Below, piece by piece: positions 17,384-64,000 of a DNA stretch of 64,000 bases. A model generated the notes under the pieces. The model worked only from the letters and a program-made list of their open reading frames with translations, was not told the origin of the DNA and did not search any database. The stretch is from Escherichia phage VTCCBPA_322. Position 1 is the stretch's first letter, and every line of letters starts with the position of its first letter. The stretch lies in the sequence record PP989839.1, one strand, 5' to 3'. The translations under genes were made by a program, and so were the position numbers.

Positions 17384-20300
17384 ATGTCAACATTTGACCG
17401 TCTGGCAGGTTTCGCAGACAGCATCACTAATGCCAAGCAAGTCGATGTCTCTACTGCAACCTCTCAGAAGCAAGCTGCACAAGGGCAAAGCCCTTTCCAA
17501 TTAACCCCAGAGAATGCTTACAATCTCCAAACTGGTCGTGTAGGTAATCTTGGAATCGGTGCATTCGAACCAGGTTCACTTCAGGCAGATTTCACTCAAG
17601 CCTCTCCATTAGAAATTCTTAATAAATACGGTAATGAGCAAGGTCTACAGATTCTTAATAGCCGAGCTAATGCTGCTGATGTTGTACGTCAGGACTTATC
17701 TAAGCAACGTACTAACGCAGAAGCATTTGGTGATACTCTTTCTGGTGTTGGTCTTGGTGTTGCTAATACCCTTGGGGGCATTGCTGCTCTTGGCACAGGT
17801 CTGGTCAATGATAATGCCGGGGCATCCATTGCTTCCGGGATGGATTGGTTGAATGAAGGTGTACACAATCTACAGTCTGATGCACTGAATGCTACCCGTA
17901 AGGTTGTTCAGAATCAGAACCTGATTTCTGCACAAAAGAACCAGAAACTTTATGAAGAAGACATTAAGAATGGGGAGAGCAGTTTGGTTGCCTCCTTGTC
18001 TCGCATTGGTCGTGACGCTTTTGATTCCGTTGCTAATACACTTGATAATGGTATGGCTGCCACCGATGGACTGAGTGAAGGTGTTGGTTCCCTCTTTACT
18101 GGTGGTCCACTTATCCGTGGTGTATCTGCACTTGGTAAAGTAATGGTAGGTGGTGATAAAGCTATTAAAGGTATTACCTTAGCTGCTGAGTTAGGTTCAC
18201 GCCCTGCACAGGTTGCATTGTCTGCTGGTCGTGTTGCTGCACCTGCTATAGCAATTGGTGGTATGGAAGCTGGTGGTGCATACCAACAGACTGCTTCTGA
18301 AATCATGAAGATGTCCCATCAAGAATTAGCAAGTAAGTCTCCTGTTTATCAACAACATATTGCTGATGGTTTATCCCCTGATGAAGCTCGTCGTCAGACT
18401 GCATCTGAAACAGGTATCGTTGCTGCTGGCTTAACTGCTCCGGTTGCTGCTGCTACTGGTCCACTGGTATCCAAATTTGAACTCAACCCCCTTAAAGTAG
18501 GTTCACTGGCTGGTGCTGGCTCTAACATGCTACGTGAGACTGTAGAAGAAGGTATCCAGTCCGGTACTAGTCAGTTTGCACAGAACAAAGCAATTCAGGG
18601 TAATGTAGATGCTAAGCGTGATTTGCTTAAAGGTGTCGGTGAACAAGCAGGTCTTGGTGCACTTTATGGCTTCGGTAGTGCTGGTGTTGCTCAGGCTCCA
18701 GGTGCAACTGTTAAAGCTGTTGGTGCTTCTGCTGGGCCTGCTTTACGTACTACTCTGGCTGGTGCTTCTCTGGTTGGTAGTGCATTAGCAAAAGCTGCCT
18801 CTCCTATTACTAACATCCTGGTTCAACGTGGGGAAGAAGTTGCTAAGCGTAATGAACAAGCATCTCCTGTATCAGACGCTACAGTTAACGCTGCTGCACA
18901 AGAAGCTACTGCTCAGGCAGAACAAGCACAAGCAACTGTACAGGAAGCAGTAGATGCAATGGATATTTCTCCTGAAGAGAAAGCTGCTGCTACTCAGTAT
19001 GCTGCTGACTTAACTCAGGCAATGAAGTTTGACCCAGTAGAGTTAGAGCAAGCTAATCCAGCAATCCGTGAAGCTGTTTCTGGTTCCACTAACCGTGTAG
19101 AAGCTATTCAGAAGATGGCTGACCTGGTTAATACTGCTGAAGACCCTAACGTTCAAATGGAAGCTGCAATCCAGATGTATGACAACATCATGTCTATGGA
19201 TAGCTTCATTAATCGTGACCCGGGTGCTTTGGCTAATCTGGAACAGGGTTCTCCTGCTGCTAATATTGTTGACCAGTTCTCCGGTCTGATGGCTAACGTA
19301 CAGAATACTCCAAAGGTACTTCGTGCATTCCGTGCCATCCATTCTATGATTCAGGAACAGGCTGAAGCAGGTAAGTTAAAAGCTACTGAAGAAGCTAATC
19401 AAGCCCAAGCAAACAACATTGCTATGGCTGCTGATATGTCTCCAGAAGTATTGGATGCAGATTCAGTGAACATGGTTCTGAAACATGCAAGTGAAGGTAA
19501 GATTACACTGGGTAATCGTCAGCGTGCTGCCTTGCAATCTGCTGCTGCTTTATTACAAGGAGCACGGGAATTTGACGCTAAAGCAGAAGAACTGGGCTTA
19601 CGTCCTCAGGACATTGTTAGTAAACAGATTAAAACCGACGAATCTCGTTCTAATGAAGGTCAGTACTCTGCGTTGCAACATGCTAAACGCATTCGTTCTG
19701 CGTACAACTCTGGTAACTTCGATTTGGCTTCCGCTTATCTCGACGACTTTATGAAGTTCGCCCAGCACATGCAGAATAAGGTCGGAGCGTTGAATGAGCA
19801 TCTGATTTCTGGGAATGCGGATAAGAATAAGTCTGTCCATTATCAGGCTCTTACTCCCTCCCGTGAATGGGTACGTAGTCGTACTGGCCTCGGTGTCAAT
19901 CCGTATGATACCAAGTCGGTTAAGTTTGCCCAGCAAGTAGGACTGGAGGCCAAAACCGTAGCTGATATTGCTAATGCACTTGCTACGGCTTACCCGGAGC
20001 TTAATGTTTCTCATGTGAAGGTTACCCCATTAGATTCACGTCTGGACAAGCCTGCTGCCCAGGTGGTTAAAGAGTTCCGTCAGGGCAATCTTGACGCTGC
20101 TCAATCCCAACAGACCAATGAACCAGTGAATCAGGTTGATAAATCTCCTGCACCTGTGCAAGAGGCCACTACTACTGTACAGCCTAAAGCTAAACTAGTG
20201 GTAGAAAATAAGACTGTTCCTGTTAAGGAGACTAGTTCAAAAGCAGAAGAAGTCTCTACTACCGAATCCGAAAGGGATGCTTATGTGAAAGAAAATACTA

Positions 20301-23300
20301 TTTCACAGGACATCCTCAATAAGAGCGGTGATCGTAGAGAGAGTCCTTGGCTCTTTGCTGATGGTACTGTTGTTGGTTCTAACGGCGATCACATTAGCCT
20401 GTCCGATGTATTTGGTCACGATGGCTATCGTGATATGTCTTTGGATACTGGTGCTGTACGTTCTACTTTCTATAAAGGCAGTGAGCAACCATTCGTATCT
20501 TTGCAACTTTTTGATAATCAGAAGCTAACTACTGAACAATTCAATACTGTTCAATCATTCGTAGAAGCAAACAATGCACTGATTCAGATTGGTGTAGATA
20601 CGTCTGGGCGTAACACCAATAACGTTGAGAAGATAGAAGTATCACTGGCCCAACTGAAAGCAGACTATACCGTTGGTGGTAAACCCCTGTCTGAGATGGA
20701 AACAGTGTTCCCTGTCTATAACAATGACAAGACACCGAACCAGTTCCTGAAAGCATTTACCCTGCCGGAAGAACCTAAGTCTCGCACCATTGGTTCTGAA
20801 TCCCCTTTGACTGATGTTAAGCAAGCACTGTCTTCTGCTGCTCGCTTTGAAGCATTCACTCAAAAAGAAAATAACGCTCTCACAAGTGATGTGATTAAGC
20901 GTTATCAGGACTTAATGGACTTTGGTGAAACTCTGAAGACTACTTTGTCTGACCGTCTGACTAAGTTTCTTGCTAATAAGAATGTTGGTAAACGTTTTGC
21001 AGAAGGTACTGAGGCTAACCGTTGGGTAGGTGGTAAGTTACTTAACATCGTAGAGAAAGATGGGGATACCTTTAAGTTCAATGACCAGTTGTTAGAGACT
21101 GCTGTACTTGCTGGTCTGCAATGGCGACTTACTGCTACACAAAATGCTGCTGTTAAAGATATGAAAGACGTAGCTGCTATTACTGGAGTAGAAGCATCCT
21201 TGTTACCTGAAGGTATCCTGGCTGAATTTGAGAATGCTCAGACTCTGGTTGAAGCTACTAACTCACTGGCTCAAAAGATTGAATCTTACTGGGGTCTGAA
21301 TCGTAATCCTAATGCACCTCTGGGTTATACCAAAGGTATCCCAATGGCAATGGCTACAGAGATTCTGTCTTCTTTCATTGAGATGGGTGAAGTTAAAGAA
21401 TCTATGCTGGATGTGTCTGAGTTTGACCCAGCTTCTAATAAGACTGTTGGTCTGTATACTATTGAGAAACTGGATGATAATGATGCCATTAACAAATTCC
21501 CTACTGCTATTGAGGAAGCTGTCCTCGTAGAACCAGAAGAGAAAATGTACTTTGGTGATGATATTCCTTCCGTGGCTCAAACACAGTTACGTAATCCTGC
21601 TGTTAAGAATACCCCAGAGCAGAAAGCTGCTCTTAAAGCAGAACAGGCTACCGAGTTCCGTGTACACATGCCTATGGTTAACTTCTATGAAGCATTAGGT
21701 CGTGACAACATTCTGGAACTGATGGGTGCTGGTACTCTTAATCCTGAACTGCTGAACGTGAATACTGCTAAATCATTGGAAGGTAAAAACCTGTCCGTGT
21801 CCATGGCATATGATTCCTTGTTTGGTGTAATCAATCAATTACAGGAACAGGAGAATGGTCTGGATACGCCTATTCACTATGGTTACAACATGACCCGTGT
21901 AGGTCGTATGCAGATGCTTGGTAAGAACAACCCACAATCCAGCAAGCTGGTTCGTGAAGCAATTCTGCCAACCTTCTCTACTATTGACTTAAGTAATGAA
22001 AATAGCCAAACGTTCTCTGACTTCCAGTTAGGTCTGGCTCAGGCATTGGGCATCAAGGTTCATAATATGTCCCGTGAAGCTATGTCTGAAAAACTGACCA
22101 AAGCTCTGGAAGGTAATTTGAAACCTGCTGTTGATATGATGGTTGAGTTTGATAAGTCCGGTCACTTACCTGCTGATGCAGTAGATATTCTGAAGACATC
22201 TCTGGGTGGTGATAAATCATTCGTAGCTCTTATGGCTCTTATGGAATATGCCCGTTACCTTAACAGTACTGACCGTGCTAACTTTAATACCCCACTGTAC
22301 GTTGAAGCCGATGGTGTAACCAACGGGCCAATCAATGCAATGGTATTAATGACCGGTGGTAAGTTCACTTCGGATTGGATTAAGAATACTGCTAAAGGTG
22401 GTTTGTTCTTCGGTAAAGCTGGTAAGACTATGAACGAACACCGTTCACAGGATGACAGTGTTGACTTGTATGAAGCATCTACTAATGGTCTGCAACAAGC
22501 ACTAAATGAGTTACGTACTACTTACCGTAATAATGTTCCGGTCATGAACCAGATGAATCATCTTCAGAAGTTAATGGACCTGTTCATTAAAGACTTTAAC
22601 CTGAACGAAGACGGTACTTTGGACCTGAAACGTGGTATCGCTAAAAACCCACTGACTATTACCATCTATGGTTCTGGTGCTCGTGGTATTGCTGGCAAGA
22701 TGGTTAGTGCAATTACTGACACCATCTATGAACGCTTCAGTGATGTTCTGCAAGCTCGTGCTGCTGACCCTAGCATTTCCCCAGCTATGGCAATGTTTGG
22801 TAAGGAGGCTGCGTCTGAGGCTAATGCTCAGGCTATGCTGGATACTTTCCTTACATCTATGGAAGCACTGACTGGTAATGTTCCAGTTATGCGTAAAGGT
22901 CAACTGTCTATTCAACAGGTAGAAGGTGCTCTGACTGGTAAGTTAGACCCACAGAAATTTACTGTATCTGGTAATGCCCTGAAGAACTTACAAGAGAACA
23001 TGCTTCACCTGTTCGTTGAACCAATGCGTACTGGTATCCGTAATACTGTTGGTGAAGGTCTTATGCATTCTACTGAGAACTTGCAGAAGGCTACCCAGAT
23101 TCAGTCTTTGGTTCTGCAAGACATGTTCCAACAAGCAGTACAGGCTAAGCTGGCAGAAAAAGAAAAAGACCCAACATGGAAGAAGGGTGATTTCTTAACA
23201 CAGAAAGAACTTAATGAAATCCAGGAATCATTATCTCCACTGGCTCCAATGATTGAGACTGGTTCACAGACTTTCTACATTGCTGGTAGTGAGAATACTG

Positions 23301-26300
23301 ACGTTGCTAACCAAGTTCTGGCTACCAACTTAGATGATCGTATGCGTGTGCCAATGAGCATCTATGCTCCTTCACAGGCAGGCGTTGCAGGTATTCCATT
23401 TATGACCATTGGTACTGGCGATGGCATGATGATGCAGACCCTTTCTACTATGAAAGGTGCTCCGAAGAATACCCTGAAAATCTTTGATGGTATGAACATT
23501 GGTATCGACAACATCACTGATGCAAGTCGTAAAGCTAACGAGGCTGTATACACTTCCTGGCAGGGTAACCCTATCAAGAATGTCTACGACTCCTTCTCTA
23601 AGTTCATGAAGAATGTAGACTTCAGCAAACTGTCTGATGAAACCAAACAGGCTATCGCTAAATCTGCTCTGGAATATGACCAGCGTGAAGGTGCTACCGA
23701 TGACCTGTTACGTGTTGGTGCTGAACAGATTGAACGTAATCTGCGCAACATTGCTCTGGGTGTGGATATTCGCCACAAAGTAATGAACCAGGTACAGACT
23801 ACTGTTGACCAGATGGCTGCTGTAGGTGCTCCTTATGTGAACAACGGTAAAATCTCTCTGGAAGGTCTGACTGTAGACCAGCAAGTAGCTAAGCTGAACG
23901 AACTGTTTGATGCTGAGTTAAACAAGCGTCGTGATGCAGTACGTGCTGCTAAAGCAGAACCAGTGAAAGAAGTACCAGCAATGGAACAGGTTGGTCGTGT
24001 ACTGAAGTCTGGTGTACGTCTGCTGTCTAATACTGCTATCTCTAAGCTGGCTAAAGAGATGTCTCCGGAACAGCAAGCGGTACTGAAAGAAGTACAGAAA
24101 TCCCTTGCTGCTAAAGACTACAAAGTTGTTTATGGTACTCCTGCTCAATTAGATGCTTATGCTATTGAGAAGAATATTACTCGCCCAGCACCAGAAGATA
24201 TTGAAGCTGCTGAAGCAGGTAATGCATACGGCTGGACTAACTTTGATGATAAGACTATCTACTTAGTTACCCCTTCCTTGGAGACTCTGGTTCATGAATT
24301 GGTACATGCTTCTACTTTCGAATCTGTACTGGCTCATTATGAAGGTACTCCAAATGAAGCAGTCCAAAATATTGAAGACTTAATGAATCAGTTCCGTACT
24401 CTGGATGTTAAGGATGAATCTCCGGCAGTACGCGAAGCATATGCAGATGCTCTTAATACCATTAATGGTCATTTGTCTAATGGCTTCATTGAACCAGCAA
24501 TGGCTAAAGCTGCTGCACTTAACGAGTACATGGCATGGGGTTTAACTAACCGTGAACTAATTAGCAAGCAGAAGAAAACTACTGCACTGAAGACTATGGT
24601 TCAGGCTGTGTATGAAGCAATCAAGCGTCTGGTATTCGGACGTAAGAAAGCTCCCGCTAATGCAGATGATATGTTCTCTGGTTTACTATTTAACTCTGCT
24701 GTAGTTATGCGAGGACAAGCTCCTACTGCTGCTGTAGCCAAGGATACTACTCTGTTCCATAACAAAGCATACGGTGACAATACTCGTCTGGAAGAGCTAG
24801 GGAAAACCTTCGATAAACTGATTACAGACTACATTGGTTCAGAACCAGTACAACAAGTAATTCGTAAGGGTAAATTCTCTGATGCAGTAGTGAATGCAAC
24901 TAAAGTAACCCGTGATGTTCAGGCTCATGGCTTCACTATGAATATGCAGGAACAGCGTCTATTCACTAACATCGTTGCTGCTCTGGCTACTGAAGCTGCC
25001 ATTAGTCCTGCTGCCCTGGCTCGTGCACAGGAATACTATACGCATGTTACTAAGAACCTGACCGTTGAATCGTTCATGGCTGACCCGGATAGTACTAACC
25101 CTGCTGACCGTTACTATGCTCAACAGAAGTTCGATACCATTATGGGTGCTAACAATATTGAGTTTGATGCACAGGGCCGTTCTTCCTTACTGCCTACCTT
25201 TGTTGGTCTGGCAATGGTAAGTGAAGAGGTACGTAAAGTACTGGCAGACATTCCTGTTATGAAAGCAGATAAGCAATCCGGTAATACAGTTGATGCAATG
25301 CTGACTAACATTGGTACTGCTGCAATGGCTAGTCTGAATGCTCGTGTAGCGGGTGATACTAAGGCTACCAATGTACAGGAAGGTATGGATGCACTGGCTC
25401 AGACAATCATGCAGACGAGTCTCAATGCACAGTCCTTCTATGATTCCGTTGCTACTCCTAGTGGTAATGCTATTGACCGTGCTAACCAGTATCTGGTGGA
25501 TTCTATTGATGCATTGTCTACCCGTGCTTTAGAAGGTGCTCGTGAAGTTGCAGCTAATACCAAGAACCCGTTGGTTAAAGGTGCTGCTCATGCTGCACAA
25601 CTAATAGCTGCTATTGCTACAGAGAAGAATGGTGAAATCGTAGCTGAAGGCGTTATGGCTGCAATGAACCAGGGTAAAGTGTGGCAACCTTTCCATGACC
25701 TGGTTAATGACTTAACAGGCCGTACTAAGAGCAATGCTTCTGTATACGATTTGATTAAGGCAGTACGTGCACAGGTACAAGCTGACCGTCAACAGTTCCG
25801 TGAACATTTGCCTACCACTATCGCATCTAAGTTCAGCCGTAAGCTGACTAATGATGAATGGAAAGCAATGCATACTGGTATGGGTAAAACTGACTTAGCT
25901 GTTTTACGTGACACTATGTCTCTGGCTGAAATTCGTGACTTGCTGACTGACCAAAAGATTGTTGACCGTGAAGTGAATAAGCTGGAAGCAGACTTACAGA
26001 AACAAGCTGGTCGTAACTGGCCTCTGATTAGCCGTAAATCTAAGCAACTAGCTCAGTACATGATTAACGGTACAGTTGGTAATAACCTGCTGCGTAATGC
26101 TACAGCAATCTCTCGTATGCTGGGTGAACGTCAGGCTGCACGTTCTACTGTAGATGTAGCTCAACTGGATAAACTGATTACTCTGTATGCACTGGAAGCA
26201 ATGAGTAAGACTGACCGTGAGATGTTATCTTCACTGGCTCAATCAGAAGTTGATGGAATTGATTTTGCTACTTCTTACCTGGTTGGTCAGCGTAAAGATG

Positions 26301-28096
26301 AAATGGCTAAAGCCAAGTCTGACATGCGTGCAACCCTGAACCAGTACAAAGGTTATATCCCAAGTGAGACTAAGCAAGGTGTTAACCTGATTGTTGCTGA
26401 AGACAGTCAATTTGCTGATTTGATTGAGAAGTCTTATGTACGTCTGGGTACTTATCAAGGTAGTTCTGCTAATCGTGGTTCAGCACGTAGCTACTACTTC
26501 GCACCGGTACAGGCACAGGCTCCATTCTCACAGGGTATTCTACAGAACGTTCGTAATACTGCTGGTGGTGTAGACCTTGGTACAGGATTTACGATGGGAA
26601 CCATGGTGGCTGGTCGTATTACTGACAAGCCTTCTGTAGACCGTATCACTAAAGCACTGGCTCGTGGTGAACGAGGTAATGAGCCACTGATGCCTGTATA
26701 TGATGACAAAGGTAATGTAGTTGCTTATGAACAATCTATTGACCCTAACATGCTGAAGCACATTGAGGGTGAGAACCATCTTGCTCGTGCAATCGGTGTA
26801 TGGCGTGGTCGTCAGGTGGAAGAAGCTAAGGCTCAGCGTTTCAACGATATGCTAATTGAGAATCTGCATAGCATGTATGAGAACGACATTAAGATGTCTG
26901 CCTCTAATAAGTCCCAGTACGTTAACCTTCTTGGTTCTAAGCTGGACCCAGTAACTGCTGATGCCCTTAAGCTGATGAACAGTGAAACACGTCAGAAAGC
27001 AGAAAGCCTGTTTGGCGAAGGTGAACTGTGGGTTCGTCGTGACATGCTGAATGATGCACTAGGCTATCGTGCAGCTTCCGTTGGTGATGCCTGGTCTGGT
27101 AATTCTCGTTGGTCCCCGGAAACACTGGATACCTTTAAGAAAGCTATGCTTGGTGTGTTCGGCAACCGTGCCTACAAGTATGTAATGGGTGGTGAGAACC
27201 TGGTTCAGAACTTAGTTAAAGAAGCTAAGACTCTGATTGTAGTTAAATCAGTGGTTGTACCTGCTGTTAACTTCCTGGCTAACCTTTACCAGATGGTTGG
27301 TCGTGGTGTACCCGTTAAGAACATTGCTAAAAGCATTCCACAGAAGACTGCTGAGATTAACCAGTACCTGAAATCTCGTCTGCGTCAGGTAGACGCAGAA
27401 GCAGAATTACGTGCAGCCACTAACCCGAACCAGATTCGTAAACTTAAGGCTGAGATTCAGTCTATTACTGACAGCCATAAGCGTATGAGTATCTGGCCTC
27501 TGTTAGAAGCTGGTGAGTTCTCTTCAATTGCAGATGCTGGTATTGGGCGTGATGATATCCTGATTACTGAGGGTAAACTCCATGAATACATGGATAAACT
27601 GGCTGATAAGTTACCTAAGTCTGTACGCAACGCTGGACGTTATGCACTTATCACCAAAGATACTGCTCTCTTCCAGGGTATCCAGAAGACGGTTGAGTAC
27701 TCTGACTTTATCGCTAAAGCAATCATCTATGATGATTTGACTCAGCGTAAAGGTAAGACTCGTGAAGAAGCACTAGGACGTGTAACGGAGGAGTTCATTA
27801 ACTATGACCGTTTGCCTGGTCGCTTCCGTGGGTATATGGAAAGTGTTGGTTTAATGTGGTTCTACAACTTTAAGATTCGTTCTGCGAAAATTGCAGTATC
27901 CATGATTCGTAACAACCCGGTACATGCAGCTATGGCTATGTTGGCTCCAACTCCTACCATGTTTGGTAACGTTGGTTTACCTATTCAGGACAACATCTTC
28001 AGTATTGCTGCACAAGGTAATCTTGGTTACTCCTGGGGCTTCGGTCAGGGCTTACGTGCCCATAACCTTAACCCTTGGCTCAACCTCACTAACTAA
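17384..28096 (+). CDS. virion-encapsidated giant RNA polymerase (N4 gp50-like vRNAP)
   Basis: 3570-aa ORF (ATG 17384 with AGGAAA RBS; track start 17366 is TTG); central region has T7-like polymerase motifs: DG near PLYVEADGVTNGPINA, motif B-like KNPLTITIYGSGARG, motif C-like KIFDGMNIG; hallmark of N4-like phages. Confidence 0.9.
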   Translation: MSTFDRLAGFADSITNAKQVDVSTATSQKQAAQGQSPFQLTPENAYNLQTGRVGNLGIGAFEPGSLQADFTQASPLEILNKYGNEQGLQILNSRANAADVVRQDLSKQRTNAEAFGDTLSGVGLGVANTLGGIAALGTGLVNDNAGASIASGMDWLNEGVHNLQSDALNATRKVVQNQNLISAQKNQKLYEEDIKNGESSLVASLSRIGRDAFDSVANTLDNGMAATDGLSEGVGSLFTGGPLIRGVSALGKVMVGGDKAIKGITLAAELGSRPAQVALSAGRVAAPAIAIGGMEAGGAYQQTASEIMKMSHQELASKSPVYQQHIADGLSPDEARRQTASETGIVAAGLTAPVAAATGPLVSKFELNPLKVGSLAGAGSNMLRETVEEGIQSGTSQFAQNKAIQGNVDAKRDLLKGVGEQAGLGALYGFGSAGVAQAPGATVKAVGASAGPALRTTLAGASLVGSALAKAASPITNILVQRGEEVAKRNEQASPVSDATVNAAAQEATAQAEQAQATVQEAVDAMDISPEEKAAATQYAADLTQAMKFDPVELEQANPAIREAVSGSTNRVEAIQKMADLVNTAEDPNVQMEAAIQMYDNIMSMDSFINRDPGALANLEQGSPAANIVDQFSGLMANVQNTPKVLRAFRAIHSMIQEQAEAGKLKATEEANQAQANNIAMAADMSPEVLDADSVNMVLKHASEGKITLGNRQRAALQSAAALLQGAREFDAKAEELGLRPQDIVSKQIKTDESRSNEGQYSALQHAKRIRSAYNSGNFDLASAYLDDFMKFAQHMQNKVGALNEHLISGNADKNKSVHYQALTPSREWVRSRTGLGVNPYDTKSVKFAQQVGLEAKTVADIANALATAYPELNVSHVKVTPLDSRLDKPAAQVVKEFRQGNLDAAQSQQTNEPVNQVDKSPAPVQEATTTVQPKAKLVVENKTVPVKETSSKAEEVSTTESERDAYVKENTISQDILNKSGDRRESPWLFADGTVVGSNGDHISLSDVFGHDGYRDMSLDTGAVRSTFYKGSEQPFVSLQLFDNQKLTTEQFNTVQSFVEANNALIQIGVDTSGRNTNNVEKIEVSLAQLKADYTVGGKPLSEMETVFPVYNNDKTPNQFLKAFTLPEEPKSRTIGSESPLTDVKQALSSAARFEAFTQKENNALTSDVIKRYQDLMDFGETLKTTLSDRLTKFLANKNVGKRFAEGTEANRWVGGKLLNIVEKDGDTFKFNDQLLETAVLAGLQWRLTATQNAAVKDMKDVAAITGVEASLLPEGILAEFENAQTLVEATNSLAQKIESYWGLNRNPNAPLGYTKGIPMAMATEILSSFIEMGEVKESMLDVSEFDPASNKTVGLYTIEKLDDNDAINKFPTAIEEAVLVEPEEKMYFGDDIPSVAQTQLRNPAVKNTPEQKAALKAEQATEFRVHMPMVNFYEALGRDNILELMGAGTLNPELLNVNTAKSLEGKNLSVSMAYDSLFGVINQLQEQENGLDTPIHYGYNMTRVGRMQMLGKNNPQSSKLVREAILPTFSTIDLSNENSQTFSDFQLGLAQALGIKVHNMSREAMSEKLTKALEGNLKPAVDMMVEFDKSGHLPADAVDILKTSLGGDKSFVALMALMEYARYLNSTDRANFNTPLYVEADGVTNGPINAMVLMTGGKFTSDWIKNTAKGGLFFGKAGKTMNEHRSQDDSVDLYEASTNGLQQALNELRTTYRNNVPVMNQMNHLQKLMDLFIKDFNLNEDGTLDLKRGIAKNPLTITIYGSGARGIAGKMVSAITDTIYERFSDVLQARAADPSISPAMAMFGKEAASEANAQAMLDTFLTSMEALTGNVPVMRKGQLSIQQVEGALTGKLDPQKFTVSGNALKNLQENMLHLFVEPMRTGIRNTVGEGLMHSTENLQKATQIQSLVLQDMFQQAVQAKLAEKEKDPTWKKGDFLTQKELNEIQESLSPLAPMIETGSQTFYIAGSENTDVANQVLATNLDDRMRVPMSIYAPSQAGVAGIPFMTIGTGDGMMMQTLSTMKGAPKNTLKIFDGMNIGIDNITDASRKANEAVYTSWQGNPIKNVYDSFSKFMKNVDFSKLSDETKQAIAKSALEYDQREGATDDLLRVGAEQIERNLRNIALGVDIRHKVMNQVQTTVDQMAAVGAPYVNNGKISLEGLTVDQQVAKLNELFDAELNKRRDAVRAAKAEPVKEVPAMEQVGRVLKSGVRLLSNTAISKLAKEMSPEQQAVLKEVQKSLAAKDYKVVYGTPAQLDAYAIEKNITRPAPEDIEAAEAGNAYGWTNFDDKTIYLVTPSLETLVHELVHASTFESVLAHYEGTPNEAVQNIEDLMNQFRTLDVKDESPAVREAYADALNTINGHLSNGFIEPAMAKAAALNEYMAWGLTNRELISKQKKTTALKTMVQAVYEAIKRLVFGRKKAPANADDMFSGLLFNSAVVMRGQAPTAAVAKDTTLFHNKAYGDNTRLEELGKTFDKLITDYIGSEPVQQVIRKGKFSDAVVNATKVTRDVQAHGFTMNMQEQRLFTNIVAALATEAAISPAALARAQEYYTHVTKNLTVESFMADPDSTNPADRYYAQQKFDTIMGANNIEFDAQGRSSLLPTFVGLAMVSEEVRKVLADIPVMKADKQSGNTVDAMLTNIGTAAMASLNARVAGDTKATNVQEGMDALAQTIMQTSLNAQSFYDSVATPSGNAIDRANQYLVDSIDALSTRALEGAREVAANTKNPLVKGAAHAAQLIAAIATEKNGEIVAEGVMAAMNQGKVWQPFHDLVNDLTGRTKSNASVYDLIKAVRAQVQADRQQFREHLPTTIASKFSRKLTNDEWKAMHTGMGKTDLAVLRDTMSLAEIRDLLTDQKIVDREVNKLEADLQKQAGRNWPLISRKSKQLAQYMINGTVGNNLLRNATAISRMLGERQAARSTVDVAQLDKLITLYALEAMSKTDREMLSSLAQSEVDGIDFATSYLVGQRKDEMAKAKSDMRATLNQYKGYIPSETKQGVNLIVAEDSQFADLIEKSYVRLGTYQGSSANRGSARSYYFAPVQAQAPFSQGILQNVRNTAGGVDLGTGFTMGTMVAGRITDKPSVDRITKALARGERGNEPLMPVYDDKGNVVAYEQSIDPNMLKHIEGENHLARAIGVWRGRQVEEAKAQRFNDMLIENLHSMYENDIKMSASNKSQYVNLLGSKLDPVTADALKLMNSETRQKAESLFGEGELWVRRDMLNDALGYRAASVGDAWSGNSRWSPETLDTFKKAMLGVFGNRAYKYVMGGENLVQNLVKEAKTLIVVKSVVVPAVNFLANLYQMVGRGVPVKNIAKSIPQKTAEINQYLKSRLRQVDAEAELRAATNPNQIRKLKAEIQSITDSHKRMSIWPLLEAGEFSSIADAGIGRDDILITEGKLHEYMDKLADKLPKSVRNAGRYALITKDTALFQGIQKTVEYSDFIAKAIIYDDLTQRKGKTREEALGRVTEEFINYDRLPGRFRGYMESVGLMWFYNFKIRSAKIAVSMIRNNPVHAAMAMLAPTPTMFGNVGLPIQDNIFSIAAQGNLGYSWGFGQGLRAHNLNPWLNLTN

Positions 28097-57269: not shown

Positions 57270-57326
57270 TTTATGTTCCTTTTGCTTCTTGGCTCTCCAC
57301 TATGGGGAGCCTGCTTATTGGATGGA

Positions 57327-57566
57327 TTAGCCAGCATTAAATGATGACAATACTATTCCTGGTTCCACACCTTCTGTGGCAATACCCAGGTACTCGACAT
57401 GTACTTTATCTGGGGAAGAACACCAAGCGGAGTATGTACTCCATTCTCCGTCTGGGCTAATAAGACGAGCCTCTTCTGCGGTTTTAGCTGCTACCACAGC
57501 AGAATCATATGTATCCCAATCCGTATTTTCTTCTTGGCTAATAAGCCATAGTTTTAATCTACTCAT
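57327..57566 (-). CDS. small hypothetical protein
   Basis: 79 aa between the two RNAPII subunit genes. Confidence 0.4.
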   Translation of the reverse strand: MSRLKLWLISQEENTDWDTYDSAVVAAKTAEEARLISPDGEWSTYSAWCSSPDKVHVEYLGIATEGVEPGIVLSSFNAG

Positions 57567-58377
57567 CGTTTACTAACTCCTTATCAGCGAACTCCAGTAC
57601 AGCTTTGTTGTAACTGGTTCCCTGATAGTTAATGTGATAGCCCTGAGCATAAGTACGCCCACGTTTGTCATATTTGTGACCCAGTGAGAAGTTATTACCC
57701 TCTTTGGTCACTAACTCCATTACTTCCTTAGCGGTACGGCTGTACTTCTCAAAGGCTTTAACACGTTTCTCGTATTCCTGTCGGGTTTCACCCTCTTTGG
57801 GCTTATCCATATTAGGGCGAGAGTCTTTTACATAATTAGCAACATCCCAGTTGATACTTAGACGTTGATTATTCATACGGTTAATATGGTCAAGACAGAC
57901 ATCCATCTCATGATGGTTCTTCTTGAGGATGATACTGCCCCTGCTCTCGTAGTAACCTGTATCACGGTTACACAGAACAGGCTTAGGAGCACTTACGATA
58001 GGTAATGGATACTGGAATGCTTCCAGTTCCATCTGAACATCTTCACTAATCTCATAGATAACACCGAACTTGTCGATGGTAGGGTCATAGTTGAAGCAGT
58101 CATTCTCTGCCATCTTATACAGACAGTCAGCGATGTACTGAGCGTCATCTGAGTGGCTCATGAGAGAGCCAATCATAGTCTGGATGTCGGCTCGTTTATG
58201 TAGGGCAATCTGCACCATTGCATCAATGAGCAGCTTATAATCAATTTCCAAATAGGCAGCGAATGCCCTAAAGTCAATTTCTTCGGAGTCCTCAAATTCC
58301 TTCCTCATGCGAGGGAGTAATTGATTTTTGTTGAAAAGAATTTCGAGTTGCTTCTGATGTTCAATAGATGAGTACAT
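57559..58377 (-). CDS. phage RNA polymerase II, small subunit (N4 gp15-like)
   Basis: 272 aa immediately upstream of catalytic subunit gene; assignment by synteny and size. Confidence 0.6.
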   Translation of the reverse strand: MYSSIEHQKQLEILFNKNQLLPRMRKEFEDSEEIDFRAFAAYLEIDYKLLIDAMVQIALHKRADIQTMIGSLMSHSDDAQYIADCLYKMAENDCFNYDPTIDKFGVIYEISEDVQMELEAFQYPLPIVSAPKPVLCNRDTGYYESRGSIILKKNHHEMDVCLDHINRMNNQRLSINWDVANYVKDSRPNMDKPKEGETRQEYEKRVKAFEKYSRTAKEVMELVTKEGNNFSLGHKYDKRGRTYAQGYHINYQGTSYNKAVLEFADKELVNDE

Positions 58378-58397
58378 CGCATATTCTCCTAACTAAT

Positions 58398-58631: not shown

Positions 58632-58637
58632 TTCATA

Positions 58638-58659
58638 TCCTTAAGCTGCGGAGCAGCTT
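58638..58659 (-). promoter_or_regulatory. conserved hairpin motif TCCTTAA-GCT-GCGGAGC-AGC; candidate virion-RNAP early promoter upstream of RNAPII operon
   Basis: 7-bp stem AAGCTGC/GCAGCTT with 3-nt purine loop GGA on plus (template) strand; shares core with sites at 63123 and 63897. Confidence 0.45.
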
Positions 58660-59009
58660 TAACTCCAGTAGTTGTAAGCATCGCCTAAATGTTTACGCCA
58701 TGCTTCGGGTAACAGTACATTACCTGTTACATTAATGAACTGGTATGGGTCCAGGTAGTCATTACTCATGACTTTGAAATTCCACTGTGGATTAGAGGAG
58801 GCATAGGCAATGAAGCCTTCAATGAAGCCATAAATAGCACCCTCTTTGATACGGTTACCATTGCCATCTCTTACTGGAATAGCAAAGCTATTACCATAAT
58901 GACCATAGGCCATACCCCAGCGAGCACCATGTTTTTTATAAGCTAATTTGGCAGAAGCATTAGTATGCTGTCCAAGTGTATTAGTAGTGAATACGAAGAT
59001 TTCTTTCAT
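58659..59009 (-). CDS. hypothetical protein
   Basis: 116 aa. Confidence 0.5.
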   Translation of the reverse strand: MKEIFVFTTNTLGQHTNASAKLAYKKHGARWGMAYGHYGNSFAIPVRDGNGNRIKEGAIYGFIEGFIAYASSNPQWNFKVMSNDYLDPYQFINVTGNVLLPEAWRKHLGDAYNYWS

Positions 59010-59215
59010 TTGAGTAGTTTCCTTAAGCCTTTATAGGCTTCTTGGGAAGTCATGTTAAATTCGGGACGACCTGCAATATAAAGGTCTAATTCTTTTAGAG
59101 CCAACTCATGGTCATGCTGTTCCTTCTTGGTTCTACAATGACCACACTTGCCATCCCATTGGGATACATGACCTTTACCACATTTGCATTGTTTACCCAT
59201 TAGGATTCTCCACAA
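59006..59215 (-). CDS. small zinc-ribbon protein
   Basis: CKCGKG...CGHC four-Cys pattern. Confidence 0.45.
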   Translation of the reverse strand: MWRILMGKQCKCGKGHVSQWDGKCGHCRTKKEQHDHELALKELDLYIAGRPEFNMTSQEAYKGLRKLLK

Positions 59216-59573
59216 AGTAGTTATACATAGCTTTTACTAGCTTCTCTTTAATAACCTCACCATGACATGGTTTCGGATAACAGAAGCACTGTAAGGTCAG
59301 CCCTTTCTCGTCAATGGCTTTATTACCAAGACGATTAAGTTCATCCAGTACAACTGGATTCTTTCTCATGATTTGTTCATGAAGCCATGCTCGATATTTG
59401 GCTATAACCTGTTCTCTTGAACCGTCTTTACCAATAACGAATGGATTGCCTAATGGTGAGCCACGCCCGATATACTCTCCGGATTTACCATGATGTTTAT
59501 TAACAATGATAATTGGACGTGCATATACACCAAGCAAAGCATTAGTGTCATCACCTAATGTAATAGTCTTCAT
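59193..59573 (-). CDS. DUF4326-like protein
   Basis: motifs GRGSPLGNPF, AKYRAWL, LQCFCYPKPCHG. Confidence 0.45.
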   Translation of the reverse strand: MKTITLGDDTNALLGVYARPIIIVNKHHGKSGEYIGRGSPLGNPFVIGKDGSREQVIAKYRAWLHEQIMRKNPVVLDELNRLGNKAIDEKGLTLQCFCYPKPCHGEVIKEKLVKAMYNYFVENPNG

Positions 59574-59576
59574 TTT

Positions 59577-59801
59577 TTATTTACCTTGAATTACTAAGTG
59601 AGATTCATATAGGTCAACCTTTGCAGAACTTACTACAGGAATTATTTCATCTGTCTTGCTAATACGCATAGCAGAGCAACCAACTTTCATCCATAAGTAG
59701 GTATCAGAATCTTCATTCAGGAAACGAAATACATCACCATTTGATAAGTCTTTAAATTGAAGTACAGGTAAGGGCTTCTTCTTAATTACTTCTACTTTCA
59801 T
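59577..59801 (-). CDS. small hypothetical protein
   Basis: 74 aa. Confidence 0.45.
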   Translation of the reverse strand: MKVEVIKKKPLPVLQFKDLSNGDVFRFLNEDSDTYLWMKVGCSAMRISKTDEIIPVVSSAKVDLYESHLVIQGK

Positions 59802-59802
59802 A

Positions 59803-60126
59803 TTACTGACCTTTGGGGTTAAGTACCTGGAAAGCGAACACAGGGCGTTTACTACGCCACTGGTTCATAGCTAGTTCACTGGTTTCAGAACCATCATGTA
59901 AGTCATAAATAAATGAGATTACATAGTCTGGTTCTTCTGGGAAATTCTCTGTAGAGAATGGTAAACCTGATTCCTTAAGAATAGGAACCAGTGGAGATTC
60001 TGCATTGCAGTAGAGGGTAAACTCTTCATTGAATGCCTGGCTTGTTTGAGATACATAATCAATATTACGCATCATTTTATCTACATCTGTAAATGTAGAA
60101 TCATGAACTACTAGAATAGTTTTCAT
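59803..60126 (-). CDS. hypothetical protein
   Basis: 107 aa. Confidence 0.45.
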   Translation of the reverse strand: MKTILVVHDSTFTDVDKMMRNIDYVSQTSQAFNEEFTLYCNAESPLVPILKESGLPFSTENFPEEPDYVISFIYDLHDGSETSELAMNQWRSKRPVFAFQVLNPKGQ

Positions 60127-60377
60127 ACCTTTCTTAATGTCCCATAAATGTTATTATCGACAATACTCAAATCACAAAAACCAATCTCTTCTTGTCTCCC
60201 AGAGGATACCCAGATATTGTTTTCTGTTAGCTTAGGCTTCTTAGAGAAGCCTATTAAGGAGGTATTAGCACTCTTATATTGTCGAGTATATAGAGCTATA
60301 TACTTAACCCAGTGAGGCACTTGGATAGTATGTCCCATATATTCCACAGTCTTACCTGTAGGGTATGTAATAATCAT
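60123..60377 (-). CDS. small hypothetical protein
   Basis: 84 aa; ATGA overlap. Confidence 0.45.
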   Translation of the reverse strand: MIITYPTGKTVEYMGHTIQVPHWVKYIALYTRQYKSANTSLIGFSKKPKLTENNIWVSSGRQEEIGFCDLSIVDNNIYGTLRKV

Positions 60378-60686
60378 TTAGTACCTCACAATATATACAG
60401 GTTTATTAAGCTTATTCATGATATCAATCATGTGCTTGGTTCCTTTGGAATTACCATCCCAGAAGCATACAGCAGCATCTGCAAATTCACCCATTTCCTG
60501 GTTACGTATATAACCAGCACGTTTACCTAGTCTGACCCAGTCAGCAGGAAATTTATTTATTACCATTCCTGTTCCACCCCAAAGGTTATATGCTGTAAGG
60601 TCTGCTCCATAAGCCATACCACATACTAATTCTGGACATTCAGGTATATTTCCTGAATTTACTAACTTCTGTAGTTCAGCAATCAT
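60378..60686 (-). CDS. SLOG-family (DUF2493-like) Rossmann-fold protein
   Basis: motifs GMAYGADLTAYNLW, RNQEM, CFWDGNSKGTKHMI. Confidence 0.45.
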   Translation of the reverse strand: MIAELQKLVNSGNIPECPELVCGMAYGADLTAYNLWGGTGMVINKFPADWVRLGKRAGYIRNQEMGEFADAAVCFWDGNSKGTKHMIDIMNKLNKPVYIVRY

Positions 60687-60724
60687 AAGATTAGTGTCAG
60701 TGAAGTCACGTCCACCAGCTACAA

Positions 60725-60952
60725 TCAGTTTCGTTTTTGATATCCTTGCATATAGTTAATACGGCGAATACGTTGAGTAGATGCCTTAACAGCCATCTGT
60801 TGATTTTCTTGTTTATGCTGATTAGTCAGTATCTTATCCCATTCTTTCTGGTTCCTTTGTTTCTGTAATATACGACTACAACGCTTATGATTGGCAACTC
60901 CACGTCCTTTTTTACAGACTGGGCAAATACCATAATCGTTTGAGTACATCAT
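60725..60952 (-). CDS. small zinc-ribbon protein
   Basis: CPVCKK...HKRC pattern. Confidence 0.4.
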   Translation of the reverse strand: MMYSNDYGICPVCKKGRGVANHKRCSRILQKQRNQKEWDKILTNQHKQENQQMAVKASTQRIRRINYMQGYQKRN

Positions 60953-61257
60953 TGGCTTAAAGCCTCCATTAATATTTTACGAATAACGTTAACATCAGAT
61001 TCAGTACCAATTAAACCAACAGGTTTACCTGTACTATCTGTTACAAAACCAGCAATCCTTTCCATTTCTGCTGTAATTAGTTTGTCACCACTAATAAGAC
61101 GATTACGAAGGTAAGCCTCATAAGCTACCTCTATATCTTCTACTGTGGTTCTTTCATTACGAGCGAATGGATTACTTAATGGGAAGGGTAAATGTACCCG
61201 TATATTCCTGTCAGCTACTTTAGCTTGGTGAGGAAGTATACATACTATTTCATTCAA
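60949..61257 (-). CDS. hypothetical protein, possible DUF4326-like paralogue
   Basis: 102 aa; LSNPFARNERTTVEDIEVAYEAYL resembles N-terminal motif of 59193-59573 product. Confidence 0.45.
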   Translation of the reverse strand: MNEIVCILPHQAKVADRNIRVHLPFPLSNPFARNERTTVEDIEVAYEAYLRNRLISGDKLITAEMERIAGFVTDSTGKPVGLIGTESDVNVIRKILMEALSQ

Positions 61258-61298
61258 GGTTATTTCTCCTATTTAAATACATATCTAACTATTCAAGA

Positions 61299-61332
61299 AT
61301 AAAAAATAGGAGCCTCCTAATGGAGGACTCCT
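61299..61332 (-). terminator. intrinsic terminator
   Basis: minus strand AGGAGTCCTCC-ATTA-GGAGGCTCCT followed by ATTTTTTATTCTT. Confidence 0.65.
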
Positions 61333-61334
61333 TA

Positions 61335-61523
61335 TTATTTAATACACGGATGATTGAAAGTTACGATGATATCGTCTTTAATCTTCATATTAGTAACTGG
61401 ATTGAGTTGACCAGGTGCACCAACATAAGCAACAGTGTCGTTACCCTTACTTAATGCTGACTTATTACGTTTACGCATACGAACAACATCTTCTTTGGTT
61501 CCCATGATTAATGACTTACGCAT
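61335..61523 (-). CDS. small basic hypothetical protein
   Basis: ATG at 61523 with GGAG RBS (track start 61568 lacks RBS). Confidence 0.4.
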   Translation of the reverse strand: MRKSLIMGTKEDVVRMRKRNKSALSKGNDTVAYVGAPGQLNPVTNMKIKDDIIVTFNHPCIK

Positions 61524-61890
61524 GTTTAGTACTCCACATAAAGTTAAAAGGTTTATTGTTACGTACAATTCTTACAACCATTTGATAGCCATTGAGCTGC
61601 ACAACACCATAGTGTCGTTTCTGTACACCAGTGTGATATCTACGAAAGATACATTCTTCAATGGCATCTTCTATGTTAGTGAATATCACTGGTTCTCCCG
61701 TAATATCGACAACTAAGCACAGGTGAATAACGTTTACACATCGCCACCTGGCTCATCTCTGCCACGAGCATTACTTGCTACGGAAGTGAACATACCAATA
61801 ACTATGCCTACTGCTAATAACCACGGGAATGCAGCTACCAGCAGTATCATTAATAAAGTACACAGAATCTCTGCCAGCAGCTTCATAGCA

Positions 61891-62295
61891 TTATCCTTCC
61901 AGTTGTTTAGGCAACATTGCCATTAGTTGTTTAGCCATAGACTCACACTCATCGGTGCAATATTGCTCATCTCGCCATACACCCTCTGAGTACATGTGCA
62001 AGCCTTCCAACGGAGTACCCTTGTACTTCTCTGGGCATTTCATGAGGTCACCATAATGAGCACAATCAAAACCAATAACAATTTTGTCCTCTAATTGAGG
62101 AAGTGCATCCTGATAAGTAACACCACCATGAACTGAGATGCATACTTCTGAGTCATAATTCATGAAGTCTTTGTCTACTAAGTCAGCAGGTAATGCTACG
62201 TAACCACAATGGTGAGAACCATCATTCACTAACAGGATTACAGCAGGTAAGACAGCTTCAGTAGTCCAGCTTTTTACGATTTTATGAGTAGTCAT
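61891..62295 (-). CDS. hypothetical protein
   Basis: 134 aa; conserved-looking His/Cys positions (SHHCGY, GFDCAH). Confidence 0.5.
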   Translation of the reverse strand: MTTHKIVKSWTTEAVLPAVILLVNDGSHHCGYVALPADLVDKDFMNYDSEVCISVHGGVTYQDALPQLEDKIVIGFDCAHYGDLMKCPEKYKGTPLEGLHMYSEGVWRDEQYCTDECESMAKQLMAMLPKQLEG

Positions 62296-62296
62296 C

Positions 62297-62488
62297 TTAT
62301 TTATTTCCTTTGTGAAGTTTACGGATTTGTTTACGAGTAGGTTTAGCTACAAAGAAGTGGTCATAATGCTGACCATTCTTGTCTTCTACAGATACCTGCC
62401 AACGAGCATTAAGTGACATCTTGCCACCATAACACTGTACCATCTTAATCAGCTTCTGAGAGTTATAACGGTTACATACTGTACGCAT
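62297..62488 (-). CDS. small hypothetical protein
   Basis: 63 aa. Confidence 0.4.
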   Translation of the reverse strand: MRTVCNRYNSQKLIKMVQCYGGKMSLNARWQVSVEDKNGQHYDHFFVAKPTRKQIRKLHKGNK

Positions 62489-62592
62489 AATGGTTACTCC
62501 TTCATCTAATATAAATCTATATCTATCTGGTTACTGTTTCAGTACCCTTCGTCTAAAGATACTCAAAAAGTAGAAATAGCTTATCGTCTAGT

Positions 62593-62624
62593 TAAAAATA
62601 AAAGACTCCCCAAAGGGAGTCTTA
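62593..62624 (-). terminator. intrinsic terminator
   Basis: minus strand AAGACTCCC-TTTG-GGGAGTCTT followed by TTATTTTTAAC. Confidence 0.7.
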
Positions 62625-62631
62625 TGGTTGA

Positions 62632-63114
62632 TTAGAAAGTCAGTTTACGAGCATATTTATTCTCGTCTGCTGGGATGTCAGCAGCCTCTGCTTTCACACG
62701 GCGAAGTTGAACTTGCAGGTTAATGATACCTTCTTCACCTGGTTCCAGGTTCTGAGCATATTCGATTAACTGTTCCAGTAAGTCGTTCTGTGCACAACGC
62801 ATAGCACGGAAGTCAGCATTGCTGCTATTAGTAGGCAGCGGTTCCTGAGTATCCAGTGGAATACCTGTAGGCAGTGAGATGAATTTCTCATCATCAGAAC
62901 CTTCATTAGCTACATAACCAATGTTCAGCCAGAACTGAGCTTTTGGTTTATCAGCTTTAGCAGTAGAAGTAGCAGCAGCGTTAGATTGACCGAAAGTGAA
63001 TTTTTGAATAGACATTTTGTACTCTCCAGATAAATGATTGTTTGATTTATGGGTTTGTCCGTCGGTGACTAAACCCAAGAAAAGACTTAAGATTTCAATG
63101 ATTAGTGGATGCAT
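62632..63114 (-). CDS. acidic hypothetical early protein
   Basis: ATG at 63114 lies about 9 nt downstream of candidate promoter hairpin; alternative start at 63015 has GGAGAG RBS. Confidence 0.45.
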
Positions 63115-63122
63115 TTAAATCA

Positions 63123-63144
63123 TCCATAAGACGCGGAGCGTCTT
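63123..63144 (-). promoter_or_regulatory. conserved hairpin motif TCCATAA-GAC-GCGGAGC-GTC; candidate virion-RNAP early promoter
   Basis: 7-bp stem AAGACGC/GCGTCTT with GGA loop on plus strand; same core as 58638 and 63897. Confidence 0.45.
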
Positions 63145-63149
63145 GGTTT

Positions 63150-63449
63150 TTAAGACAAACGTTTAAGCAATTCTGCCTTAGCAGATTTGTAGTCAGAACT
63201 ATCTTGTCTTACTGCATCTTCGAAGCGAGCCAGTAGTTCTTCCTTATCTGGTTCTCCTTCACAGGATTCCCATTGCCATACATAACCAGTTAGTGGAACT
63301 AGTTCTCCTTCCACAAAGTAAGGATTGTTGTCAGAATCTCTAACAGTAGACTCTTCGGTAAGACGGATACGTTTCCCTTCTAATTCTCCTACGATAATTG
63401 TTCCAACAGGAACATCAACAGAACCTTTGATACAACGGAATTTAGCCAT
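63150..63449 (-). CDS. hypothetical early protein
   Basis: 99 aa. Confidence 0.5.
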   Translation of the reverse strand: MAKFRCIKGSVDVPVGTIIVGELEGKRIRLTEESTVRDSDNNPYFVEGELVPLTGYVWQWESCEGEPDKEELLARFEDAVRQDSSDYKSAKAELLKRLS

Positions 63450-63499
63450 TATCTATCTCCAAAGTAGATAGTTATCTACTTTTGACTATCTATCTAATG

Positions 63500-63530
63500 T
63501 TTATAAAAGGAGACTCCGAAGAGCCTCCTA
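63500..63530 (-). terminator. intrinsic terminator
   Basis: minus strand AGGAGGCTC-TTCG-GAGTCTCCT followed by TTTATAAAC. Confidence 0.6.
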
Positions 63531-63536
63531 TGTGAC

Positions 63537-63860
63537 TTAGTCTTTAGTCAGGATGTCAATTACTTTTGAATATTCTGCGTTATAGATACGAGCGTTCTCA
63601 GAATCCTTACAGAATTCCTCAATACTTTTCTTACGCAGAGTCTCAGTCATAGCTGTTTCCTCTGCCAGTTTATTAACGAATGTATGCATTTCTAATTTAG
63701 TACGAATGGCTTGTTTCTCTGCCATAGTACTTACATATGAATTAAGCATACCTACTGCTTTAGTTGCTGTACCGAATGTATCTGCAACAGTAGTAGCAGC
63801 TGAGTTAACAGTACCAAGTAAAGTTCCTGCGGTCATACGTACAGTAGCTTGAGTAGTCAT
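63537..63860 (-). CDS. hypothetical first early protein
   Basis: ATG at 63860 with GGAG RBS; 107 aa. Confidence 0.5.
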   Translation of the reverse strand: MTTQATVRMTAGTLLGTVNSAATTVADTFGTATKAVGMLNSYVSTMAEKQAIRTKLEMHTFVNKLAEETAMTETLRKKSIEEFCKDSENARIYNAEYSKVIDILTKD

Positions 63861-63896
63861 GATGATAGCTCCAATAGTTGATGATAGGACGACATG

Positions 63897-63916
63897 TCCA
63901 TAACATGCGGAGCATG
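63897..63916 (-). promoter_or_regulatory. conserved hairpin motif TCCATAA-CAT-GCGGAGC-ATG; candidate virion-RNAP early promoter for leftmost early gene
   Basis: 5-bp stem CATGC/GCATG with GGA loop on plus strand, about 40 nt upstream of start codon at 63860. Confidence 0.45.
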
Positions 63917-64000
63917 TGTAACGTGTAAGGTGGGGTAGGGTAGTGGCTACACCGTCAACATACCGGGGGGCTAGTTGAGTGTAAGGGTGTAGCCCCAGCC

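Follow-up and report, generated by a model that had tools for sequence, protein, structure and literature searches.

The sequence TCCATAACATGCGGAGCATG, read directly at positions 63897-63916 on the plus strand of Escherichia phage VTCCBPA_322 DNA (PP989839.1; the 64,000-nucleotide stretch that we analyzed is referred to throughout as the window), has every sequence feature of a virion RNA polymerase (vRNAP) hairpin promoter. Its position and sequence make it, with high probability, the orthologue of phage N4 promoter P1 and the leftmost early promoter of a G7C-like, N4-like coliphage. Promoters of this kind are already known, and the site, hereafter P1, is a textbook N4-type hairpin promoter. 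For annotation, its identification would place the start of the first early transcription unit at about 63899 on the minus strand, suggests that the phage follows N4 in having extruded DNA hairpins read by an injected polymerase, and removes a spurious small open reading frame (ORF) from consideration. Knowledge of N4-type promoters is unchanged by it; a predicted stem-loop at the 5′ end of early transcripts is the sole element that might add something.

A hairpin upstream of the first early gene

The last 3 kb of the window are 91-96% identical to Gamaleyavirus (G7C-like) coliphages, and the nearest records match a 24-kb internal stretch at ~93% identity. Window position 64000 corresponds to base 1-3 of several records, and the end of the window coincides with the left end of many. 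These alignments identify the phage as an N4-like member of Gamaleyavirus (G7C-like), which the window shows in reverse orientation. Because the early genes run leftward on the minus strand, the plus strand is their template. The genes that bear on P1 are as follows.

63537..63860, minus strand: gp1 homologue, the first early gene, 107 aa, 65% identical to N4 gp1
62632..63114, minus strand: gp2 homologue, 68% identical to N4 gp2 from the first residue
58398..58631, minus strand: 77-aa ORF after the third hairpin site (P3), homologous to KP8 gp021
57559..58377, minus strand: gp15 (RNAPII subunit) homologue, following the 77-aa ORF
17384..28096, plus strand: vRNAP, 3570 aa, the cognate enzyme

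Promoter geometry was taken from a 2015 review and a 2026 cryo-EM paper. The vRNAP promoters of N4 are conserved from −17 to +1, with inverted repeats flanking a GC-rich heptamer at −11; the polymerase contacts −11G, −10G, −9C and −8G, and the junction between paired and single-stranded DNA lies at −5/−4 (PMC4496689, PMC3715699). With the heptamer centered on −11, the N4 rule puts the start site 8 nt downstream of −8G (PMC4496689), and two initiating GTPs are bound in the cryo-EM complex with the N4 P2 oligonucleotide (...CAGCC-AAAA-GAAGC-GGA-GCTTC; PMC13492108). The heptamer GCGGAGC belongs to the GCGNAGC "mini-hairpin" class, and mini-vRNAP binds GGA loops with high affinity (PMC13037366). 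Transferred to the window, this geometry gives the following assignments.

63904..63916, plus strand (template): P1 promoter hairpin, with its stem at −5 to −9 and −13 to −17 and its loop at −10 to −12
63907..63913, plus strand: heptamer GCGGAGC, a GCGNAGC mini-hairpin motif whose central G63910 is −11G
63900..63903, plus strand: single-stranded spacer ATAA, 4 nt, −1 to −4, the "molecular ruler" from stem base to start site
63899 (+1) and 63898 (+2), plus strand: predicted start site, template CC, placed by N4 geometry; the RNA would begin with GG
63861..63899, minus strand: predicted 5′ leader of the gp1 mRNA, 39 nt, given +1 at 63899

The hairpin itself is as the earlier note had described it: a stem of CATGC (63904-63908) and GCATG (63912-63916) enclosing the loop GGA (63909-63911), and a sixth pair, A63903:T63917, is possible and would bring the stem to 6 bp. 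P1 presents, on the template strand, a stem within the 5-7 bp expected of N4-type promoters, with a 3-nt loop, and a GC-rich heptamer at −11 with a central purine, −10G and the −12A of the sheared pair. Within the stem lie −8G (G63907) and −9C (C63908), the bases contacted by R904 and D901. At the sequence level, four unpaired nucleotides then precede a template C at +1, 8 nt downstream of −8. We infer from this register that the P1 transcript starts at 63899 on the minus strand. The near edge of the motif lies 36 nt from the gp1 homologue and the predicted leader spans 39 nt, in agreement with the distance of about 40 nt given previously.

The cognate vRNAP encoded in the window retains the elements for promoter recognition. 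It is 67% identical to N4 gp50 overall and 70% identical over the polymerase domain, keeps K114, R119, W129, K268, K849, K850, D901 and R904 (mini-vRNAP numbering), and has conserved catalytic residues. K267, a residue of the beta-intercalating hairpin, is changed to N and is the sole promoter-contact residue that differs.

By analogy with N4, the left genome end would enter the cell and be supercoiled by host gyrase, and the P1 inverted repeat would extrude as a small cruciform. Host SSB would melt the non-template arm and leave in place the unusually stable template-strand hairpin, with its GCGGAGC core and the sheared G:A pair of its GGA loop. The injected 3570-aa polymerase would bind this hairpin and read −11G, −10G, −9C and −8G, with the 4-nt spacer serving as ruler, and the RNA would begin with GG at 63899 on the minus strand. 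The product would be a transcript with a 39-nt leader that encodes the gp1 homologue, a middle RNA polymerase cofactor, which would be translated from its own Shine-Dalgarno sequence. Cruciform extrusion, the dependence on SSB and gyrase, and the exact start site are in each case carried over from N4.

P1 lies ~85-104 nt from the genome end, and no gene is found upstream of it. Between P1 and the left terminus, the last 56 nt of the window hold a perfect 9-nt inverted repeat, GGCTACACC/GGTGTAGCC, at 63945-63953 and 63986-63994, and a 7-nt perfect inverted repeat at 63967-63973 and 63990-63996. The left end of N4 carries an equivalent inverted repeat, GGCTACAC...GTGTAGCC. These terminal repeats could be a terminus, packaging or ejection signal.

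Sister sites, conservation and alternative roles

Two further copies of the motif occupy the corresponding places upstream of other early genes.

63123..63142, plus strand: P2 orthologue, TCCATAA-GACGC-GGA-GCGTC, predicted +1 at 63125, upstream of the gp2 homologue, whose AUG is at +12
58638..58657, plus strand: P3 orthologue, TCCTTAA-GCTGC-GGA-GCAGC, predicted +1 at 58640, upstream of the 77-aa ORF

Searching the window for TCCATAA-N3-GCGGAGC with at most 2 mismatches returned three matches (58638, 63123 and 63897), all on the plus strand, compared with 0.32 expected from shuffles; none of 100 shuffles reached three. All three sites fall in the last 5.4 kb of the window, that is, at the left end of the genome, on the template strand and upstream of early genes. 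They correspond to P1, P2 and P3 in the gp1, gp2 and gp15 contexts, so that the proposed match with the three early promoters of N4 holds. The bare heptamer GCGGAGC occurs four times, always on the plus strand, and three of these copies have flanking stems of 6-7 bp. We rejected the extra copy at 49831 as a fourth promoter: it has no flanking stem and does not fold into a hairpin. Folded as single-stranded DNA, the P1, P2 and P3 sites gave −4.7, −6.9 and −6.4 kcal/mol (z = −2.1, −4.3 and −4.0). By predicted energy P1 ranks below the other two, and 8 of 200 shuffles folded equally well.

The P2 hairpin as read on the plus strand (63127-63155) has GTTTTT after it and was classed as terminator-like; any antisense transcription on its way into the early region could be stopped there. 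The first AUGs after P2 (63114) and P3 (58631) are only 11 and 9 nt from the predicted starts, so the gp2 homologue and the 77-aa ORF have no room for a normal Shine-Dalgarno sequence. The first 33 residues of gp2, which are conserved with N4, lie ahead of an internal GGAG-N7-AUG (M34), and two gp2 isoforms are therefore possible.

Beyond the window, a hairpin of the same form stands upstream of the gp1 homologue in phages G7C, ECBP1, AN24P2, Jgk1 and Moo19, in KP8-like Klebsiella phages, in Xanthomonas phage RiverRider, in Pseudomonas phage inbricus, in several Achromobacter phages, and in Stenotrophomonas phage Pokken and Burkholderia phage HN05. At this position the loop is a variant one in Erwinia phage Frozen and Stenotrophomonas phage Philippe, and the hairpin of Axy24 has one stem mismatch. 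The position upstream of gp1 was conserved in every N4-like lineage examined except phiEaP8, for which the locus held no upstream sequence.

The stem is maintained as a structure. We aligned 47 distinct heptamer-containing sites from N4-like phages without applying any stem filter. At −5, the pairs were UA in 22 sites, CG in 17 and AU in 6; at −6, AU in 29, CG in 12 and UA in 3; at −7, GC in 39 and CG in 5. Paired cells amounted to 86%, compared with 70% in shuffles (0 of 500 as high) and 20-47% in slid-partner controls, and the outer three stem pairs showed changes on both sides in 7, 16 and 24 of the 47 sites. The identity of the pairs at −5 to −7 is thus free while pairing is kept. GG at +1/+2 was present in more than 90% of the aligned sites, and −8G and −9C were invariant in all 47, the sites having been selected by the heptamer. 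A scan of IMG/VR for GCTCCGC-N7-GGACATGT returned mostly chance matches in GC-rich contigs and few new orthologues, and serves as a negative control for stem length: all 14 N4-like matches had stems of at least 5 bp, compared with 2 of 25 unrelated matches, most of which had 2-3 bp. Taken together, positional orthology, identity of the contact bases, covariation of the stem and conservation of the polymerase contact residues bear out the earlier note's proposal that P1 is a third copy of an N4-type vRNAP hairpin promoter.

Relatives have 4-6 such hairpins, compared with 3 in the window. Jgk1 (L005) has sites at 91, 591, 1248 and 1565, including two identical copies of P1 500 nt apart; the duplicate is probably a terminal repeat assembled in tandem. 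G7C (L002) has a hairpin at 506 that lacks GG at +1 and might be a terminator or a dead promoter.

These data also bear on other roles that the hairpin could be given. Palindromes of 5 bp are common and the folding energy of P1 alone reaches only z = −2.1, as would suit a chance palindrome without function. Against this stand the three matches where 0.32 are expected, the covariation across genera and the conserved position upstream of gp1; for practical purposes the comparative data refute chance, and we give that reading almost no credence. A role in the RNA, as an intrinsic terminator or a processing site instead of a DNA promoter, is extremely unlikely. The P2 copy does sit directly 3′ of the stop codon of a 99-aa ORF, and the T-run that follows it on the plus strand was picked up by a terminator scan. 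P1, however, has no gene upstream to terminate and lies ~85-104 nt from the genome end, reading in the sense direction (TTATGGAC) reveals no U-run after its hairpin, conservation falls on those bases that N4 vRNAP contacts on the template strand, and the conserved spacer and downstream GG would have no role in a terminator.

It is very unlikely that P1 serves some other DNA process close to the terminus, for example as a priming or replication site or as a packaging signal. Such a function would fit the location of P1, within ~100 nt of the left terminus and adjoining other conserved terminal inverted repeats, and mini-hairpins of the GCGNAGC class do occur at priming sites (PMC13037366), stable ones acting in this way at some single-stranded DNA phage origins. 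It would not fit the identical motifs found 0.8 and 5.3 kb further in, each on the template strand immediately ahead of an early gene; their N4 equivalents are experimentally defined promoters. Nothing calls for a second role of P1 in replication or packaging, and we retain the N4-type promoter as its probable function.

Searches for other signals gave little. A scan of 62900-64000 found no sigma-70-like promoter near 63900, and an Rfam E-value scan of 57000-64000 found no match at E up to 1. We rejected both a sigma-70 promoter and an intrinsic terminator at P1; the sole terminator-like hairpin call was that at P2, on the antisense strand.

The short upstream reading frame and a predicted 5′-terminal stem-loop

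The earlier note had also pointed to an ATG that, in two of the three sites, opens a tiny ORF, and had suggested that the one at P1 is translationally coupled to gp1. Two features of the minus strand are needed to follow this proposal.

63857..63901, minus strand: 14-codon "leader ORF" (MDMSSYHQLLELSS and a stop codon), whose TGA overlaps the gp1 ATG as ATGA; judged not to be a gene
63887..63899, minus strand: inverted repeat GGAC-AUGUC-GUCC at the 5′ end of the predicted gp1 transcript, with the AUG at +5 to +7 in its loop

As a statement about sequence, the observation stands: the ORF at P1 has 14 codons, and at P2 the ATG of TTATGGA opens one of 10 codons, the P3 site reading TTAAGGA and having no ATG. 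As a translated leader, the ORF finds no support. The ATG of the 14-codon ORF (63901-63899) spans −2, −1 and +1 under N4 geometry and so would not be fully transcribed from P1; close relatives have lost the layout, other subfamilies lack it, and the peptide is not conserved; no Shine-Dalgarno sequence precedes the ORF; and gp1 has an accessible ribosome-binding site of its own, a GGAG (63872-63869) placed 8 nt ahead of the start codon, where folding predicts the leader, 3′ of the 5′ hairpin, to be unstructured. A longer ruler of the type seen in phage LUZ7 would move the start further downstream, and the ATG at 63901 would still be excluded. The ATG in TTATGGA is best explained as a by-product of the promoter consensus TTATGG at −4 to +2, not as a start codon, and the leader-ORF hypothesis is very probably wrong.

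Stated in full, that hypothesis holds that a short upstream ORF is translated, either with 14 codons from the ATG of TTATGGA or with 12 from the in-frame AUG at +5, and that termination at ATGA couples ribosomes into gp1. The 14-codon ORF does exist and does end in ATGA; its length and the overlap recur in G7C, KP8-like phages, Moo19 and Jgk1, all of which have a 39-nt leader despite internal indels; and the AUG at +5 to +7 (63895-63893), the sole fully transcribed in-frame upstream AUG, is inside the predicted transcript. That AUG, however, has a 4-nt leader and no Shine-Dalgarno sequence, and is placed in the loop of the 5′-terminal hairpin. Close relatives also break the arrangement: in L057 a stop interrupts the leader ORF at codon 8, L058 combines a 38-nt leader with GUG where the +5 AUG would be, and the leader of L052 runs to 114 nt. 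This last locus, from a metagenomic G7C-like phage (IMGVR_UViG_3300006879_000003, 1373-1500), carries an insertion with a second GGACATGT segment between P1 and gp1, which accounts for the leader length and makes it a natural variant that disrupts the leader-ORF layout. Further afield, the ORF of N4 ends 4 nt short of the gp1 ATG, and the triplet at −2 is GTG or CTG in Rothmandenesvirinae (Axy22, JWAlpha and phiAxp-3). The encoded peptides differ (SSYHQLLELSS versus SSLSLTIGAIQ) because compensating indels shift the frame. We regard coupling by either form of the ORF as very improbable, and take gp1 to be translated from its own GGAG.

The inverted repeat that holds the +5 AUG has a pattern of its own. 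Predicted gp1- and gp2-class transcripts begin with an inverted repeat exactly at +1, which in the window takes the form of GGAUG-N9-CAUCC at 63107-63125 on the minus strand for the gp2 class. For the gp1 transcript, the 5′ hairpin is predicted at −4.9 kcal/mol and makes up 99% of the ensemble when the first 20 nt are folded. We compared the stem-loop across related loci (L001, L009, L067, L071, L073, L076, L079, L057 and L058), with the following forms.

gp1 class, window: GGAC-AUGUC-GUCC
gp1 class, N4: GGACA-UGU-UGUCC
gp1 class, inbricus: GGGUA-AUGU-UGCCC
gp1 class, phiAxp-3: GGGU-AUGUU-GCCC
gp1 class, HN05: GGCA-AUCA-UGCC
gp1 class, Frozen: GGCA-UCU-UGCC
gp1 class, RiverRider: GGA-UUCAU-UCC
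gp2 class, window and most relatives: GGAUG...CAUCC
gp2 class, two metagenomic relatives (L057 and L058): GGAUUC...GAAUCC

The third pair of the stem is A:U, G:C or C:G across subfamilies, a compensatory pattern. In the gp2 class, G:C is replaced by U:A in L057 and L058, where the substitution at leader position +5 goes together with His to Asn in gp2 codon 2. Minimum free energy (MFE) folds of the first 24 nt contained a terminal helix of at least 4 bp in 69% of 45 distinct sites, compared with 19% of 2000 control 24-mers starting with GG; gp15-class sites have no terminal helix. The MFE measure replaced a more permissive stem count (G:U allowed, loops of at most 12 nt), by which 36% of control positions reached 4 bp or more. 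We tentatively suggest that the stem-loop on gp1- and gp2-class early mRNAs may be under selection and maintained by compensatory changes across subfamilies, a possibility that we hold at somewhat less than an even footing. One possible role is to shield the triphosphorylated 5′ end against decay that depends on RppH and RNase E; the stem-loop might also assist, during promoter escape, in peeling the new RNA from its single-stranded template. Should it prove real, it would offer a simple, testable determinant of how stable early mRNAs are, or of how promoters on single-stranded templates are escaped. We found no description of such an element in the searchable literature, a scope outside which the primary N4 promoter papers fall, and we present it as a lead, not a finding.

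Comparison with known systems

Three hairpins of this kind are predicted routinely in descriptions of N4-like genomes (PMC3715699, PMC6027278). In N4 itself, the hairpin upstream of gp1 is at 93 and reads GTTGC-TTC-GCAAC ttat GGACATGTTGTCC; those upstream of gp2 and gp15 are at 562 and 4551, and the register is hairpin, any four nucleotides, GG. Like P1 of the window, N4 P1 lies ~90 nt from the left genome end and upstream of gp1, and has a 5-bp stem, a 3-nt loop, the spacer TTAT (non-template strand) and GG at +1/+2; the downstream GGACATGTYGTCC and the −9C/−8G closing pairs are common to both. The two differ in the stem (GTTGC/GCAAC in N4, CATGC/GCATG in the window, through compensatory changes), in leader length (47 nt in N4, 39 nt in the window) and in the loop, which in N4 P1 is GAA (template GCGAAGC, −11A) and in the window is GGA, as in N4 P2 and P3, a loop type of higher affinity (PMC13037366). 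A GGA loop is present at all sites in the window phage, G7C and KP8, to which N4 P1 stands in contrast, and relative promoter strengths may therefore differ from those of N4.

The N4 P2 and P3 promoters and the early promoters of Klebsiella phage KP8 carry on the template strand the heptamer GCGGAGC, identical to that of the window, and N4 and KP8 share with the window the same three genomic contexts (gp1, gp2 and the gp15 region). N4 P2 and P3 have the spacer TTTT, whereas the window has TTAT or TTAA. In KP8 (NC_048700), the orthologous sites are annotated as early promoters and listed in the accompanying paper (PMC6950046). The hairpin and TTATGGA of KP8 P2 (AAGACGCTCCGCGTCTTATGGA) are identical to those of the second site in the window, and the third site, like KP8 P4, precedes a homologous small ORF and then the RNAPII subunit gene. 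KP8 has four annotated sites (P1-P4), compared with three in the window. A bioRxiv paper on G7C-like phages contains nothing on early promoters.

More distant systems share the principle and differ in its execution. Pseudomonas phage LUZ7 has early hairpin promoters with a conserved 3-nt loop and an initiating G (PMC9163698). It belongs to another subfamily, with nine early starts, stems of at least 4 bp and, by ONT-cappable-seq, starts 13-14 nt from the hairpin center, compared with 11 nt here (PMC9163698). The ruler can therefore differ in distant relatives, and the exact +1 in the window could, as in LUZ7, differ by a few nucleotides, the shift being further downstream. Promoters of the T7 type are read by polymerases that have the same fold and recognition modules, namely the specificity loop and the intercalating hairpin (PMC4496689), but T7 promoters are double-stranded and read as sequence, whereas those of the N4 type are read as a single-stranded hairpin.
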